From IMG/VR virus record IMGVR_UViG_3300011952_000009: DNA of 10,180 nt. One strand, 5' to 3'. This document shows positions 3,153 to 10,180 of this stretch, one piece after another (position 1 is the first letter of the stretch; each line of letters starts with the position of its first letter). The notes under the pieces are model-generated. The model saw nothing but the letters and a program-made list of their open reading frames with translations, made no database searches and was not told where the DNA came from. This DNA is from a virus. Lineage: Duplodnaviria > Heunggongvirae > Uroviricota > Caudoviricetes. The translations under genes and the position numbers were made by a program.

Positions 3153-3566
3153 CTATTTTGTCTGGTTTTTGGCTTCAAGTAGTTCTTTTAGCAGTAGATC
3201 GAAGTGCTCTCTTTTTTCTTTTAGCTCATTGATTAGTTTGTTTTTTTCGCTCTCAGGCAGTCCTCTGAATAGTTGCAGTAGAGCCTGTTCTTGCGGGGTT
3301 AGTTCTTGATTGTAATTACCGGGGTGTAGCGTGGATTCATCCAAATATTCTCCTTCATTCATGAAGAAAAAATGAACAGGGTATCCGGTCACTTTTGCTA
3401 GCTTGTCTAATTTATCTTTTCTTGGAGTTACCCCATTACACCATGCCTGAACTGATTGAGCTGTAACCCCAATATGGCGAGCTAACTCAGATTGAGACCA
3501 GCCTAAGTCTTTTAGAATCCGTTGTAGTCGGCTAGCAAAAGCCATGTTTTTCGTTTTTGTGTTCAT
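3153..3566 (-). CDS. Prophage repressor, DicA-like (N-terminal HTH, C-terminal dimerisation region, no S24 peptidase domain)
   Basis: HTH segment LGWSQSELARHIGVTAQSVQAWCNG. C-terminal LTPQEQALLQLFRGLPESEKNKLINELKEKREHFDLLLKELLEAK resembles the DicA C-terminus as recalled. Divergent from a Cro-like gene and flanked by palindromic operators. Track start 3581 is a TTG; ATG at 3566 (or 3545) is more likely. Confidence 0.85.
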   Translation of the reverse strand: MNTKTKNMAFASRLQRILKDLGWSQSELARHIGVTAQSVQAWCNGVTPRKDKLDKLAKVTGYPVHFFFMNEGEYLDESTLHPGNYNQELTPQEQALLQLFRGLPESEKNKLINELKEKREHFDLLLKELLEAKNQTK

Positions 3567-3585
3567 ACCGTAAGGATACAAGGTT

Positions 3586-3619: not shown

Positions 3620-3659
3620 TTACAGTTANNNNNNNNNNCAAGACAAACTTCTTTCAGTA

Positions 3660-4655: not shown

Positions 4656-5690
4656 ATGAGTCGTTTGCTGATTAACGAAAACCCCCTTCAGGTCCTGCCC
4701 ACGTTGGCATGCACTATAGGGTTGAATGAAGCCATCGTTCTACAGCAAATCCACTACTGGCTGAATTCATCTCAAAATTTCTTCGAAAATCGCCACTGGG
4801 TGTACAACAGTGTGACCGATTGGCAAGAACAATTCCCGTTCTGGAGCGAGTCGACAATAAAACGCGTGCTGGCCAATCTGGAAAAATTGAATGTGGTATT
4901 TACTGGGAACTTTAACAGTGATGCCTGGGATAAAACCAAGTGGTNNNNNNNNNNCCCAGTTATGTAAGATTGAAGAGACAACATTCCCTGTGGCCAATCG
5001 ATTAGGTCAAGTTGACCCAATCGAAGAGGTCAATGTGACCCAAGCATCAGGTCAAGTTGACCCATGCGCTAAGGTCAAAATGACCCAATCTCTTACAGAG
5101 AATACAACAGAGAGTACTACAGAGATAAAAGATCCCCCTTACCCCCAAAAGGGGGAGGGCGAGGAAATCATTCTCGCTGACGCTCAAAAAGCTCTGAACT
5201 ACTACAACGAGAAAGTCGGTACACGCTGCCGCGACGTTAAACCGTTTGTCATGCTGCTGACTGCCACCACCACCCGCGCTGGTTACAGCGTGGCTGAGAT
5301 TCAGTTAGTAATTCGTTGGGTTATTGCGACATGGCGCCGTCGTAGCGGAAGCGTGCCGAAACCTGCGAACATTTGCCGCGTAAACCGGTTTGACGGATAT
5401 CTGGCTGACGCTGAGGCGTGGGCCACTGCTGAGGCTGCCGTTGACCCTGCTGAAGTTGTGAAGGGCTACAACGAGATTCTGGGCGACCTGACCGCCGTCG
5501 GGCAATCCTGCGCCTGCTGGCACATATGCGCACGCAAACTCTTGGCGCATTTATCGGCTACTTCGAAAAATTCCGCGATAACGCCCCAGACTTCTATTTC
5601 GGCGGCGAATATCGCACCGGCTGGCGGGCAGGGTTTGATTACCTGATGAAGCCAGAAACACTGCGTAAAACCAGGGAAGGGGCATTATGA
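4656..5690 (+). CDS. Replication initiation protein, lambda O-like / replisome organiser, with the origin inside the gene; reading frame changes at the N-gap 4945-4954 and again near 5455-5505
   Basis: ATG 4656 with GGAG 8 nt upstream. N-terminal HTH-like segment (track 4620..4967), middle part in track ORF 4891..5646. The last ~60 codons are more protein-like in another frame (AILRLLAHMRTQTLGAFIGYFEKFRDNAPDFYFGGEYRTGWRAGFDYLMKPETLRKTREGAL) ending TGA 5688-5690, which overlaps the helicase ATG 5687 (ATGA). Confidence 0.7.
5004..5087. repeat. Replication origin iterons: four copies of AGGTCAANNTGACCCA at 22-23 bp spacing, followed by an A-rich tract (5088-5140)
   Basis: Copies at 5004-5019, 5027-5042, 5049-5064 and 5072-5087; each has internal dyad symmetry (GGTCA/TGACC); located inside the O-like gene as in ori-lambda. 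Confidence 0.75.
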
Positions 5691-7035
5691 ATCCAGAAGA
5701 ACTGGAAGCGATCGTTCTCGCTGGTCTGATTAACGGTGGTGCGACGCCTGACGCGTTTGATGTGATTGCCACTACTCCGGAGGAAGCCTTCAGCATCGTG
5801 TTTCACCGTCGCGCTTTCAGCGAAATCAAAAAGCAGGCACTGGCGAACGGCATGATCGACATGTTGTTTATCAGCGAAGCGCTGGGCGGTTCCAGCCTTG
5901 CGGATCTGTCTCAAATATCCCGGATCCCGGCAACGGTACCGAATCTGAAAGGCTATGCCGGGAAAATGGTGCGGGCATGGCGGAGCCGCAAAATGGCGGC
6001 ATTGTTGCAATCTGGCGCGGATGGTATCCGTAACGCTGTAAACCAGAGTCAGCGTGATGAGGTTATTGAATCTCATGTTGCTCAGGTGCTGGATATGAGC
6101 GCCGCTACCGGCACAGTCCAGCCGGTACACATCAAAGAGCTGTTACCGCTCTACATTGACACCGTTGATAAACGGATGTCTGGTGACGCGCAGGAAATGA
6201 TGCTGAAAACCGGAGTCGAGGATCTGGATGTCGCCCTGGGCGGTATCAACATGACCGACCTTGTTGTGGTTGCCGGTCGTCCAGGCATGGGGAAAACGGA
6301 ATTTACCCTGAAGATTATCGATGGCGTTACCGCAGATGGCGGCGGCGCACTGTTTTTCAGCATGGAAATGGGCGCTCAGCAGATTGTTGAACGTACCGTT
6401 GCCGGGGCTGGGAATATGTCCACGTCGCGTCTGCGTAATCCAAAAGAAATGGACGATGAGGATTTGACCAGATTAACCGCCGCGCTTGCAATCATGCAGG
6501 ATCGCGATATCTGGATTGTTGATGCCACTGATTTGACGATTGAGCAGATCCGCGCCATTGCAGAGACTCATAAACGCCGTTATCNNNNNNNNNNGCCGAG
6601 CGCCACGATCTCGCTGTCGGGCATATCTCCCGCAACATGAAGACTATGGCCATGCGTCTGCATACCCCTGTTTTTGCTCTTAGCCAGCTTTCCCGCCAGG
6701 TGGATTCTCGACCTGCTGGCCAGCGTCGCCCGGTGATGTCGGACCTGCGCGATTCCGGCAGTGTTGAGCAGGACGCTGACAGCATTTTGTTTTTGTACCG
6801 CGCTGAAGTTTACACACCTGATTCACCTGCAAAGGGTATCGCCGAGGTGATTATCGGTAAAAACCGTTCTGGCGGGGCAGGTGAAATTATTTATCAGGAA
6901 TTCCGGAATGGGCATTTCCTGCCAATTGATCAACACGTAGCACGCGAAAAATTACGCATCCAGAAGGAGGCAGAGCAACCGAGAAAACGTGAAAAACGGT
7001 ATTCAAACAAAAACTTTAATACGGACCCATTTTAA
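5687..7035 (+). CDS. Replicative DNA helicase, DnaB family (phage P22 gp12-like), interrupted by N-gap 6585-6594
   Basis: Walker A GRPGMGKT; after the gap, ALSQLSRQ, SDLRDSGSVEQDADSILFLYR and IGKNRSG motifs. Track ORFs 5687..6640 and 6637..7035 are two parts of one gene; the frame difference across the gap implies the gap length is unknown. Confidence 0.9.
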
Positions 7036-7485: not shown

Positions 7486-7722
7486 ATGACCGGGCAATCA
7501 GATTACCTGCCGCCCGGCTTACCACACAACCGCGCCAAATGGCCCCAGGAATACCAGCTTAAAGAGCACTACGACATGCGAGCGGCGGCGCTGATCCGCC
7601 AACTCTTTGAGAAACGTATTCCGAGGGGAAGCGTGATTGAGCAAATCGGAATGACGCCGGATACATACCGGGAATTTTTCAGAGAGCGTCTGAACTACTG
7701 GAGAGGGGTGATGGAACAATGA
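7486..7722 (+). CDS. Hypothetical 78-aa protein
   Basis: ATG 1 nt after the upstream stop; track ORF. Confidence 0.6.
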   Translation: MTGQSDYLPPGLPHNRAKWPQEYQLKEHYDMRAAALIRQLFEKRIPRGSVIEQIGMTPDTYREFFRERLNYWRGVMEQ

Positions 7723-8030
7723 AATACAAACGGTGGGTGCGTGCGGAAGTCGTAATCATCAAACAATGTGCAGGCAGCATGACAGTTGAACGTATAGGGC
7801 AGCTTATTGGCAGAACCGGTGCAGCGGTACGCACAAAAGCGCGCGAGCTGAAAATCTGTATGTATCTGCGGGGTAATTATCATCAGTCAGCGAAATACTG
7901 CCAGGAGGATATCGAGCTGGCAAGGGAATTACATCAGTCGGGTATTAATCGCCAGGATATCGCGGAAAAACTCGAAATGCCGATCGGAGCGGTGAATCAG
8001 TTTGTTTATTTTGAGCGGAGGATTTCATGA
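7719..8030 (+). CDS. Tandem-HTH DNA-binding protein (two GcrA-N-terminal-like / sigma region-4-like repeats)
   Basis: ATGA overlap with the upstream gene. Two repeats, WVRAEVVIIKQCAGSMTVERIGQLIGRTGAAVRTKAREL and DIELARELHQSGINRQDIAEKLEMPIGAVNQFVYF. Family assignment from memory. Confidence 0.6.
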   Translation: MKYKRWVRAEVVIIKQCAGSMTVERIGQLIGRTGAAVRTKARELKICMYLRGNYHQSAKYCQEDIELARELHQSGINRQDIAEKLEMPIGAVNQFVYFERRIS

Positions 8031-8248
8031 AAGAACTTTTTCTGGCATTTGTGCCCCGGTTTATTAATGACCAGATCGCACTGACTGATAATGGTGAACA
8101 ATATGAAATTGCCTGCAGCATGGTGGATGTGAATCCTGGCGAACGGTATGACGCGATGTGNNNNNNNNNNTTTACCTGGCTGGGTTGGGCTATTCCGTGT
8201 GGAGAACCAACCAATATTCGCCCATTTGAGAGCAGGGAGGCTGTATGA
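8027..8248 (+). CDS. Hypothetical small protein (contains N-gap 8161-8170)
   Basis: ATGA overlap with the upstream gene; same frame open on both sides of the gap. Confidence 0.5.
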   Translation: MKELFLAFVPRFINDQIALTDNGEQYEIACSMVDVNPGERYDAMXXXXFTWLGWAIPCGEPTNIRPFESREAV

Positions 8249-8435: not shown

Positions 8436-8657
8436 ATGTTTGGCGATAAACTGGAGTTACCACGGAACGGGCGGATAGTGCTCTATATTTCAGATTACAA
8501 AGTAACCAGGGCTGAGGTGTTGGAACCGGAAAAACATCTGGTCACGTTACCGGACATTATTGAGTTGTATAAGCGGGTCGGATATGTGGACTTGCATCGC
8601 GATGATGTTCCCGTTGAGTGTATGGAATGTGAACACCGGAGGTTTGAAGTTGATTGA
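8436..8657 (+). CDS. Hypothetical 73-aa protein
   Basis: GGAGGGAAAGGAC before ATG 8436; track ORF. Confidence 0.6.
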   Translation: MFGDKLELPRNGRIVLYISDYKVTRAEVLEPEKHLVTLPDIIELYKRVGYVDLHRDDVPVECMECEHRRFEVD

Positions 8658-8658
8658 A

Positions 8659-8687
8659 TTGACTTAGAAAAAGCCCGGGGCTATAGT
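8659..8687 (+). promoter_or_regulatory. Strong sigma70 promoter: -35 TTGACT (8659-8664), 17-bp spacer, -10 TATAGT (8682-8687)
   Basis: Read directly; both hexamers 5/6 to consensus with optimal spacing; predicted start site about 8694-8696. Confidence 0.55.
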
Positions 8688-8747
8688 TTCCGCGCAGCCG
8701 CAAAATCGGTTGCCGGGATTGGCGTCCCGGATATCTAAGTGACGCAT

Positions 8748-8768
8748 AGCCGCGTTAGCGGTTTTTTT
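8748..8768 (+). terminator. Rho-independent terminator: stem CCGC/GCGG (extendable to 6 bp), loop GTTA, then T7
   Basis: Stem 8750-8753 / 8758-8761, T-run 8762-8768; about 60-75 nt downstream of the predicted start site. A second hairpin CCGGGA-TTGGCG-TCCCGG lies at 8713-8730. Confidence 0.55.
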
Positions 8769-8929
8769 ATGTGTTAGGCACGGCCACATTCGCATTATGG
8801 TGGGCTGTGTGGGGGCTTCTGCGGAAGCGCCGGGTTCACTTAGCCGGTTACGCCAACCCTGCACAGTTCACCACCAGATGATTGGCGTCGCTGGTGGTGA
8901 TGAAAAAAACACTAAGTGAGGCCACTGCG

Positions 8930-9718
8930 ATGACAATCCAAATATCTGCGGAATCCCTTTCTCCGCTACATCATAACCAACTTCCCGTCATCACTACTGA
9001 ATTGCTTGCCAGTTTGTATGGCACGGAAGTAAATGGTATCCAGCAAAACTTCAAGCGCAACATCGCCAGATTTGTCGTAGGAAAGCATTTTTTTAAGCTG
9101 GAAGGTAATGAATTACGCGACTTCAAAAACAGACTGACAGATAGTCAGTCAGTTGCTAAACATACCCGATCCCTCATTCTCTGGACAGAACGCGGCGCAG
9201 CTCGCCATGCCAAAATGCTGGAAACAGAACAGGCCTGGGAAGTTTTCGAAAAGCTGGAAGATTGTTATTTTAGCCAGCGTCCAGAGAGGCGGAGTACAAC
9301 TACCGATGACCGTACTCCCTTACGTGATGCCGTTAATATGCTGGTCGGTAAGAAAGGCATGATGTATCCCGATGCCTACACCATGATTCATCAACGCTTC
9401 GCCGTCTCTCACATAGAACAACTGTCACAGACGCAAATGTTAGAGGCGATTGAATACATCCACTGCCTGCTACTCGATGAAAATCAGCCAACCATTCCAG
9501 ATTTTTCTTTTATCACCACTATCAAAAATGGAAAAGTGACCAGGATGCGCCATGTTGCCAAAGGCGAACATCTGATGACGTTTGACGCTTTCAAAGAGAT
9601 CGCTGAGCGGGCAGGGTATCTGGTGATCCACAGCGACAACCTGCGAAGTATGACACTGGATAAATTGATGGTAATGGGGAAAAAGTCTGCTGTATCTGTT
9701 GCTGATTCAGCATTTTGA
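8930..9718 (+). CDS. ORF6N-domain protein (phage antirepressor-like) with an unrecognised C-terminal domain
   Basis: N-terminal LASLYGTEVNGIQQNFKRNIARFVVGKHFFKLEGNELRDF...LILWTERGAARHAKMLETEQAWEVFEKLEDCYF fits the ORF6N pattern as recalled. GAGG 8 nt before ATG 8930; track start 8882 is a TTG and ATG 8900 is an alternative. Confidence 0.75.
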   Translation: MTIQISAESLSPLHHNQLPVITTELLASLYGTEVNGIQQNFKRNIARFVVGKHFFKLEGNELRDFKNRLTDSQSVAKHTRSLILWTERGAARHAKMLETEQAWEVFEKLEDCYFSQRPERRSTTTDDRTPLRDAVNMLVGKKGMMYPDAYTMIHQRFAVSHIEQLSQTQMLEAIEYIHCLLLDENQPTIPDFSFITTIKNGKVTRMRHVAKGEHLMTFDAFKEIAERAGYLVIHSDNLRSMTLDKLMVMGKKSAVSVADSAF

Positions 9719-9895: not shown

Positions 9896-10180
9896 TTATT
9901 GGTTTCTGAGGAAAGCGATTCTTGAAAGGGTCATTTGCGTCTGGCAGTCGACCATTTTCTTGACTTCAGCATCTGTTCCCTGCATTGAAACTTTACCGCA
10001 CATAGCATCCTTAGTTTTGATCCACTGACGCTGAGAAGGCAGCAACTCTTTTTTCTTCGCCGGCGTTAACCTGCCCCAGACTGTATTCAAATCAGAGTCA
10101 GCATTCGCAAATGCCATTCGGGACTGATCAAGGCTTTCAGCTTTTTGCGGCTGAAGTTGTGCCTGCCTCTCTATTTGCTT
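9896..10180 (-). CDS. DUF1311 / LprI-like protein (lysozyme-inhibitor-like fold family), 5'-partial: frame stays open to the window end
   Basis: C-terminal pattern Q-x-x-W-x-x-x-K-D-x-x-C ... D-C-x-x-x-x-T-x-x-R as in DUF1311 from memory. Track start 10117 is an internal Met; no stop upstream to position 10180. Confidence 0.55.
   Translation of the reverse strand, partial: KQIERQAQLQPQKAESLDQSRMAFANADSDLNTVWGRLTPAKKKELLPSQRQWIKTKDAMCGKVSMQGTDAEVKKMVDCQTQMTLSRIAFLRNQ

Follow-up and report, generated by a model that had tools for sequence, protein, structure and literature searches.

A Predicted IsrK-Type Terminated RNA and a C4-Type Antisense RNA Upstream of an ORF6N Antirepressor Gene in an Escherichia coli Prophage

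Results and Discussion

Genetic Context of the Locus

The stretch of DNA analyzed here, hereafter called the window, comprises 10,180 nucleotides of a Caudoviricetes virus record (IMGVR_UViG_3300011952_000009); all features described below lie on its plus strand unless stated otherwise. The window belongs to an E. coli prophage, with 99.9% identity to strain CFSAN061769, and a 1.3-kb segment carrying the module discussed here is found at 95% identity or more in 443 of 5,426 complete E. coli genomes. The early region is of the lambdoid/Rac type, a helix-turn-helix repressor gene being followed by YdaS/Cro-like, YdaT/CII-like, RepO, and DnaB genes. The repressor, encoded on the minus strand at 3153-3581, gave no Peptidase_S24 match in Pfam.

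The gene of main interest is an antirepressor gene at 8930-9718, which encodes a protein of 262 amino acids with an ORF6N domain (Pfam, 8.2e-22) and matches the anti-repressor family phrog_4792 (4e-161). This agrees with the initial annotation of the sequence, according to which the first gene downstream of the unit encodes an ORF6N-domain protein rather than a lysis protein. The N-terminal 116 amino acids share 74% identity with AnrP of the Salmonella prophage Gifsy-1, while no homology to Ant1 or Ant2 of phage P1 was found by BLASTP (E = 1.5). RefSeq uses the same start codon, ATG 8930, and has nothing annotated in the gap of ~680 bp that precedes the gene and holds the RNAs described below. 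In the identical E. coli prophage, the antirepressor gene is followed by a convergent LprI-family gene and then by unrelated genes over 9 kb, with no Q, lysis, or late genes annotated within that distance.

Two small genes upstream, ORFs 7719-8030 and 8436-8657, had been put forward as candidate activators or antiterminators. No support for this role was obtained: the former is a helix-turn-helix regulator and the latter resembles the C-terminal part of the antirepressor. Pfam and PHROG scans of ten proteins of the window returned no Q family, in line with the earlier observation that no Q-like gene is recognizable upstream. A minus-strand ORF at 8664-8864, which overlies the unit, likewise found no support.

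Promoter, IsrK-Type RNA, and Terminator

Starting 2 nt past the stop codon of ORF 8436-8657, a sigma-70 promoter occupies positions 8659-8687, with the −35 hexamer TTGACT at 8659-8664, a 17-bp spacer, and the −10 hexamer TATAGT at 8682-8687. It matches the consensus at 10 of 12 positions, as the near-consensus promoter described in the initial annotation should, and ranks first among the 4 promoter-like sites that the window scan lists. Transcription is predicted to start at G8694 (~8694), a position that coincides with position 1 of the Rfam isrK model. The promoter is constitutive-looking. Control by LexA was considered and rejected, as no SOS box lies within 3.7 kb, the nearest matches being found at 4903 and upstream.

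When the complete window was scanned against Rfam with the curated thresholds, exactly three matches were obtained, all of them on the plus strand and all at this locus, in the expected order isrK, c4-a1b1, and C4, and each above its gathering score. The first, to isrK (RF01394), scores 80.4 bits against a gathering score of 50 and covers the full length of the model (positions 1-77, E = 2e-16), which answers the homology search of the short RNA that the initial annotation had proposed. The second, to c4-a1b1 (RF03163), spans 8681-8733 with 52.9 bits (gathering 46.7). The IsrK-type small RNA itself is predicted to extend over 8694-8768 (~75 nt). It is organized as in the Rfam family, with its own promoter, two 5′ hairpins, and a Rho-independent terminator with a U-run, and it lies upstream of an element corresponding to orf45/STnc1160 (here the C4 RNA at 8793-8878) and of the ORF6N antirepressor gene.

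Hairpin 1 (8694-8713) is formed by GCAGCCG and CGGTTGC, contains G-U pairs, and displays the conserved loop CAAAAU. Hairpin 2 (8714-8729) presents a short box, a1, in its loop. The single internal hairpin placed earlier at 8713-8730 thus corresponds to hairpin 2 and is real, the RNA having two hairpins in all; the initial annotation contained neither hairpin 1 nor the C4 RNA nor the repeated a and b boxes.

The intrinsic terminator at 8748-8768 consists of a stem (8749-8753 paired with 8758-8762), a GTTA loop, and a run of seven T (8762-8768). The stem, GCCGC/GCGG(T), is short, having four G-C pairs and one G-U pair. The feature had been recognized in the initial annotation and is also listed by the window scan. 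In the read-through RNA only, an outer helix can form around the terminator (8740-8776) by pairing of 8740-8748 with 8768-8776.

It should be mentioned that generic sequence statistics contribute little here. The window holds 4 promoter-like sites against 10.6 expected from shuffled sequences and 20 terminator-like sites against 11.1, and such counts alone are not informative. The 77-nt RNA folded by itself has a z score of −2.19 relative to shuffles, and thermodynamics alone would not have picked it out. Since the site counts do not set the locus above the shuffles and the fold z score is modest, the case for function rests on homology and on the comparison across phages.

The C4-Type RNA and the a and b Boxes

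The third Rfam match identifies a C4-type antisense RNA at 8793-8878 (RF01695, 74.5 bits against a gathering score of 45, full length). The minimum free energy fold of this segment (−43 kcal/mol) has the same structure as the C4 family, in which a long closing stem encloses two inner hairpins. The first of the inner hairpins is the GCTTC-TGCG-GAAGC hairpin at 8815-8828 that had been noticed initially as an element of the untranslated leader; it is real and belongs to C4. The loop of the second carries b′, TCACTTAG (8836-8843), while a′, ACGCCAA (8850-8856), lies in a single-stranded joint. By alignment to the P1 annotation, we infer that the mature C4 RNA corresponds to 8799-8875, i.e., 77 nt ending in ...CACCACC.

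The a and b boxes occur twice around C4, and both copies are complementary to it. Box a1, TTGGCGT (8719-8725), in the loop of hairpin 2, complements a′ and is identical to the core of box a2 (8880-8889, core 8882-8888), which belongs to the antirepressor mRNA leader. The identity extends over a 10-nt direct repeat, GATTGGCGTC, at 8717-8726 and 8880-8889. Box b1, CTAAGTGA (8735-8742), complements the C4 loop at 8836-8843 exactly and is repeated without change in box b2 (8912-8921, 8-nt repeat at 8912-8919). As expected for the c4-a1b1 and C4 families, a1 and b1 are thus exact complements of the downstream a′ and b′, which in turn complement the leader of the regulated gene at a2 and at b2, the latter situated at the ribosome-binding site. 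Specifically, the Shine-Dalgarno sequence of ATG 8930, GAGG (8918-8921), shares bases with b2, and the antirepressor ORF follows directly, with no icd gene in between.

Box a2 is predicted to reside in the loop of a hairpin formed by 8868-8877 and 8891-8900. In all 71 unique contexts compared, a2 is found within such a hairpin, at or near its apex, and the outer stem is built from the 3′ arm of the C4 stem. Because this arm is shared with the closing helix of C4, folding of C4 and display of a2 would be mutually alternative before processing.

Overlying C4 is orf40 (8797-8919), which starts at ATG 8797, has 40 codons, and is by position the counterpart of orf45 in Gifsy-1. Its stop at 8919 falls 10 nt before the antirepressor ATG, and the predicted 5′ end of C4 falls within its own ATG. 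A protein-coding role, suggested by a match to phrog_20442, was rejected: among 77 lambdoid-type loci the ORF is kept up to a2 in only 43, and the frames differ. We consider orf40 doubtful as a gene.

By its profile match, the unit belongs to the IsrK sRNA family, a known phage RNA. As judged from the arrangement of its elements, it is at the same time the leader, with the a1 and b1 boxes and the putative terminator, of a transcript bearing the C4 RNA and the antirepressor mRNA. Two of the three readings offered in the initial annotation, a small RNA and an attenuator-like leader, therefore hold in substance, whereas the reading listed first there, a unit of the lambda PR′-tR′ type requiring Q, does not, as discussed below.

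Comparison across Phage Loci

Viral contigs were scanned with an exact pattern for the hairpin 1 and 2 motif in which the variable positions were left free. The scan returned 120 stretches; from these and from other loci, 108 unique segments of 390 nt were taken, the window's own segment included. A set collected in this way leaves out Gifsy-1, whose hairpin 2 starts with TCGGG rather than CCGGG and which was found through Rfam instead. Part of hairpin 1, like part of hairpin 2, was fixed by the pattern, so that the conservation of those bases is not to be judged from this set. At the five free pairs of hairpin 1, pairing is kept in 423 of 425 cells (99.5%) over 85 unique sequences, with 3-6 dinucleotide types at each pair (7 at one of them).

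The distance from the −10 hexamer to hairpin 1 is constant in all 108 loci. The terminator is also found in every one, as a hairpin followed by 5-8 T located 67-85 nt past the motif, and is represented by 59 different hairpin sequences with ΔG between −7 and −14 kcal/mol. In 95 of the 108 loci, and with differing sequences, at least 6 of the 14 bases that follow the T-run find partners upstream of the terminator, corresponding to the outer helix of the window. The promoter and the predicted terminator are shown by this comparison to be integral to the module and not a chance feature of the window.

The a box occurs in 7 variants among the 108 loci (TTGGCGT, TTGGTCT, TTGGAAC, TTGGAAG, TTGGCAG, TTGGCAT, and TTGGTCG). 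In 105 of the loci the 7-mer at the a site is followed, at the expected places, by its complement and then by a second direct copy. The b box is hypervariable, with 45 different 8-mers; in Stx phages it is CTAAGTGG. When b′ is compared with b1 and b2, a summed mismatch of at most 1 is obtained at 92 of the 105 loci for the locus's own boxes and in 1 of 1586 cross-locus pairings. A perfect b2 is present in 90 of the 105 loci and a perfect b1 in 67. These data show that the three copies of the a and b sequences are kept matched by selection.

The position of b2 relative to the regulated gene is equally regular. Wherever b2 is exact (81 loci), its end is met or closely followed by the start of an ORF of 50 amino acids or more, mostly at a distance of 7-12 nt. 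This first ORF is either of antirepressor size or encodes 60-80 amino acids, which is about the size of P1 Icd (73 amino acids). Upstream of the module, the genes in other phages encode AlpA, integrases, other antirepressors, HicA, primase, and small unknown proteins, with no Q family among 30 representative neighbors. Genes of the kind usual in P4-like satellites (AlpA, integrase, and primase) adjoin some of the related loci.

Relation to Gifsy-1, P1, and P4

The closest experimentally studied relative is Gifsy-1, where the same three Rfam matches occur in the same order directly upstream of anrP. It follows from these matches that the orf45/STnc1160 element of Gifsy-1 is a C4 homologue. The a1 and a′ sequences of Gifsy-1 and the window are identical, and both loci have the promoter (PisrK in Gifsy-1), the two hairpins, and the terminator. 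The b specificity differs, being CTAAGTGA in the window and TCACCG in Gifsy-1, and b′ and b2 are changed to match. The two loci further differ in that the window has an E. coli host and Rac-like YdaS/YdaT early genes, and lacks both the upstream-adjacent Q gene and the downstream isrJ of Gifsy-1. In addition, orf40 ends 10 nt short of the antirepressor ATG, whereas orf45 overlaps it (AUGA).

Numbering Gifsy-1 from the start of IsrK reproduces the published coordinates, A107 being the first AUG of orf45. With this numbering, the mutations of the published compensatory pairs G28A/C162U and G31A/C159U (PMC4825925) can be placed: G28A and G31A map to a1, and C162U and C159U map to a′. The genetic data on Gifsy-1 hence constitute direct evidence for the a1:a′ pairing. 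It was also reported that some transcripts pass the IsrK terminator, that the read-through mRNA is translationally silent, and that short IsrK supplied in trans raises antirepressor translation more than 100-fold; in the model of these authors, a cis a1:a′ structure represses, and translation of the antirepressor depends on that of orf45, whose nucleotides are conserved while its amino acids are variable (PMC4825925). Taking Gifsy-1 as the model, a short and a read-through isoform would be expected for the window copy as well.

In P1, the GenBank record lists a1, b1, C4, a2, and b2 in the order found in the window, with boxes of equal size (7 and 8 nt) and nearly the same spacing. In both, 10 nt separate the end of b2 from the first start codon, C4 has 77 nt (the predicted value for the window), and a hairpin with a T-run is located between b1 and c4; the promoter at 8659-8687 is the counterpart of P1c4 (P51b). 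P1 differs in having icd between b2 and ant. Its Ant1 is unrelated to the antirepressor of the window, where a C1 operator is neither annotated nor expected, and its leader scores 35 bits against the isrK model, below gathering, compared to 80 bits for the window. In P1, RNase P processes C4 from a longer precursor to ~77 nt. Repression of ant by C4 is given in the GenBank annotation of P1 and in a review summarizing the work of Citron and Schuster, to whose 1990 study c4 of P1 and P7 is credited.

For P4, the comparison is with the literature. There, too, one transcript carries a target upstream (seqA), a small RNA that is processed (CI RNA, seqB), and a target downstream (seqC). P4, however, acts by premature transcription termination of its replication genes, while b2 of the window lies on the antirepressor's ribosome-binding site. 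Profiles of isrK and C4 detect relatives of P4 seqA and CI (2023, PMC10111431), and in APSE phages both RNAs are found beside BRO genes (PMC7313666).

Proposed Mechanism

What can be read directly from the sequences comprises the elements, the families they belong to, the complementarity between the three places, and the co-variation across phages. On this basis, we consider it highly probable that the unit is the first element of an RNA switch of the P1-immI/Gifsy-1-isrK type that controls the prophage antirepressor. In the mechanism envisaged, the sigma-70 promoter would start transcription at ~8694, and most transcripts would end at the 8748-8768 terminator, yielding the ~75-nt IsrK RNA in which a1 and b1 are displayed. 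A fraction would presumably read through to give an RNA with C4, a2, b2, and the antirepressor gene, and from such transcripts C4 would probably be excised as a 77-nt RNA. Pairing of its b′ and a′ with b2 and a2 would, as the likely direction of the effect, block the ribosome site of the antirepressor. The terminated IsrK would then probably compete for a′ and b′, i.e., act as a decoy (anti-antisense), or else open an inhibitory fold. Whether the antirepressor is made would depend on the balance of IsrK and C4, which the efficiency of the terminator could set in part. The outer helix and the a2 hairpin are consistent with a switch of this kind.

Since the repressor at 3153-3581 shows no recognizable self-cleavage domain, the antirepressor is a plausible route to induction, its biological role at this locus being one that we infer.

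Alternative Explanations

Two alternatives that retain the a and b pairing but differ in how it acts deserve most attention. In the first, the mechanism of P4 immunity would apply: a C4/CI-like RNA would bind a1 and b1, as cis targets on the nascent transcript, and enforce premature termination, and the short RNA would be the product of immunity and not an activator in trans. The possibility was raised by the Gifsy-1 authors, who regard IsrK as a structural homologue of P4 seqA (PMC4825925), and the cross-detection of seqA/CI relatives by the isrK and C4 profiles as well as the AlpA, integrase, and primase genes beside some of the related loci speak for it. The CA RNA of N15 is reported to exert negative control on its antirepressor operon, which points the same way. 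The terminator of the window, however, is complete, with its hairpin and run of seven T, and on paper needs no helper. Extra IsrK activates the downstream gene of Gifsy-1 instead of silencing it, and co-expression of the C4 homologue STnc1160 gave no relief (PMC4825925). The coincidence of b2 with the ribosome-binding site at 81 of 81 loci also fits a block of translation. We regard the P4 mechanism as rather unlikely for the window. As the homologous RNA of P4 does bring about premature termination, the direction of the IsrK effect could nevertheless differ here.

In the second alternative, the Gifsy-1 model would hold in its strict form, with a cis a1:a′ lock that is opened by IsrK in trans, with the antirepressor coupled to orf40, and with no free C4. 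The direct genetics of Gifsy-1 (PMC4825925) supports it, and the window shares the identical a site, the same layout, and an ATG at the same position (8797) opening a 40-codon ORF. Against it, orf40 stops 10 nt before the antirepressor ATG with no AUGA overlap, and the ORF is retained in just over half of the lambdoid-type loci (the 43 of 77 given above), in differing frames. Maturation of C4, if it proceeds as in P1, would cut within ATG 8797. The antirepressor moreover has its own Shine-Dalgarno sequence, which is covered by b2, and b2 abuts the first ORF across loci. Because orf40 is not conserved and the 5′ end of C4 falls inside its ATG, we rank coupling to orf40 below direct occlusion by C4 at this locus and judge the strict form improbable here.

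It was also considered that the unit could be a stand-alone, Hfq-dependent, trans-acting sRNA with mainly host mRNAs as targets, its position beside the antirepressor being incidental. The Rfam name of the family, "isrK Hfq binding RNA", suggests this, and according to a review many prophage sRNAs have host targets. Both of the exposed boxes, however, change in step with both C4 and the antirepressor leader across more than 100 phages, and the introduction of the Gifsy-1 paper describes IsrK as acting independently of Hfq (PMC4825925). Such a primary role is very unlikely, although host targets may exist as an extra function of the IsrK-type RNA.

Finally, the late unit of the lambda PR′-tR′ (6S RNA) type listed first in the initial annotation, in which the short RNA would be abortive and a promoter-loaded Q-like antiterminator would permit read-through, resembles the window in its strong promoter followed by a short, structured, intrinsically terminated transcript, and draws some further support from the Gifsy-1 promoter, which lies so close to Q that the Q gene ends only ~33 nt before the IsrK start, and from the loop CAAAAT at +8 to +13, by inspection weakly similar to a −10-like pause element, but it is hardly credible here, given that no Q family is matched by the ten window proteins scanned or by the 30 representative upstream neighbors elsewhere, that the module is present in P1, whose record has no Q gene nearby, that an antirepressor gene and a convergent LprI gene follow in place of the lysis, structural, or other late genes of lambda, and that the conserved, co-varying positions follow another sequence logic, pairing with C4 and not with a protein.

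Implications

The unit is already known in kind. It is an ordinary member of curated RNA families, and work on P1, P7, P4, and Gifsy-1 has addressed how these act. An icd-like ORF is absent from the window copy, whose b specificity is its own. The analysis nevertheless allows the ~680-bp gap to be annotated with IsrK, C4, and their target boxes, and it fixes the start codon of the antirepressor and its probable mode of control. It also confirms the a/b pairing model computationally, through the three-way co-variation, the 45 b specificities, and the presence of the terminator in every copy.

A literature search on IsrK and c4 together returned a single paper, which is unrelated, and a 2025 review lists them as unrelated entries. 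The unification of the two is thus not widely stated, but it is not new. Given the separate listing in reviews, tests of a unified decoy model appear confined to Gifsy-1. To our knowledge, the role of the a1/b1 leader of P1 has never been settled. That the terminator-like hairpin and T-run extend to P1 is relevant in this respect, and the comparison suggests that the a1/b1 leader may exist as a short RNA in its own right in all members of the family.

Tentatively, we may go one step further and propose that the terminated a1/b1 RNA is a specificity-matched decoy of C4 across the whole family, P1 included, so that the a and b boxes, of which at least 52 combinations occur, would serve as an RNA "address code". 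We put this forward as a possibility that is less likely than not to hold in such generality. If it is true, the more frequent imperfection of b1 relative to b2 would mean that tuning has left the decoy weaker than the genuine target. The antirepressor of one prophage could then be turned on in trans by a second phage, co-resident or incoming, that shares its code, but not by phages with other codes.

Additional Folds and Predicted C4 Processing

Two further secondary structures occur in the RNA module. In the first, a helix at window positions 8740-8776 (+), the bases immediately 5' of the terminator stem pair with those immediately 3' of the T-run, such that the terminator is enclosed. This helix is conserved in the window and in about 100 related loci, the pairing being kept while the sequence itself differs from locus to locus. 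It can form only in read-through RNA, where it might serve as a processing site or sequester box b1 of the IsrK-type RNA.

The second structure is a hairpin at 8868-8900 (+) that contains box a2, the downstream copy of a1. Its outer stem (8868-8877 paired with 8891-8900) shares the 3' arm of the closing helix of the C4 RNA, as seen in all 71 unique contexts (71/71). Because both structures use this arm, the a2 hairpin and the C4 fold are mutually exclusive before processing.

Alignment to the annotated ends of the P1 C4 RNA predicts that the mature C4 would span window positions 8799-8875, exactly 77 nt. The predicted 5' end would then lie inside the ATG (8797-8799) of the orf45-like ORF, and C4 maturation and translation of this ORF would therefore exclude each other.

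Counterparts in Gifsy-1, P1, and Viral Contigs

In Gifsy-1 (L122, 34316-34349), the promoter of IsrK and the end of the Q gene overlap, at a site where a lambdoid late promoter would be expected. The sections consulted in the Gifsy-1 IsrK paper (PMC4825925) report no test of Q acting on the IsrK terminator. In P1 (L123, 4278-4320), a hairpin followed by TATTTTT is located between b1 and c4, and the leader matches the isrK model weakly, with 35 bits, which is under the gathering score. Taken together, the hairpin with its T-rich tail and the weak match suggest that P1, too, may produce a short a1/b1 RNA.

Two viral contigs carry two copies of the module each. The copies of L075, at 3214 (+) and 6318 (-), differ in the specificities of their a and b boxes, and those of L080, at 5937 (+) and 7149 (+), have the same a 7-mer; a search for the downstream boxes of the second L080 copy did not locate them. 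There is also a second class of module (e.g., loci L010, L016, and L042, the last located on a contig of 100 kb other than P1), in which a' is found at about +193 and a longer spacer separates the terminator from the C4-like element. No ATG is present at the 5' end of the C4-like element in this class, and the next ORF encodes 60-80 aa, similar in length to P1 Icd (73 aa).

Neighboring Genes and a Possible Route to Induction

A 73-aa ORF (window 8436-8657, +) ends 2 nt ahead of the promoter. Its product shares homology with the antirepressor's C-terminal part (34% identity over 41 aa, E = 2e-6), both proteins match phrog_340, and the ORF has no RefSeq annotation in E. coli strain CFSAN061769. 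It could represent an antirepressor domain copied as a separate gene.

Five 10-base N runs introduced by masking (322-331, 3629-3638, 4945-4954, 6585-6594, and 8161-8170) break several ORF translations, e.g., those of RepO, DnaB, and ORF 8027-8248; none of them touches the RNA module. The antirepressor gene is followed by a gene in convergent orientation (9896-10117, -) that encodes a lysozyme inhibitor of the LprI family and continues past the window. Farther downstream, the identical prophage encodes HNH and GIY-YIG nucleases, not phage late genes.

In the prophage repressor (3153-3581, -; 142 aa), a helix-turn-helix is the only domain recognized, with no Pfam match to the S24 self-cleavage domain; the repressors of the Gifsy phages are alike in this. 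Prophage induction would therefore need an antirepressor.
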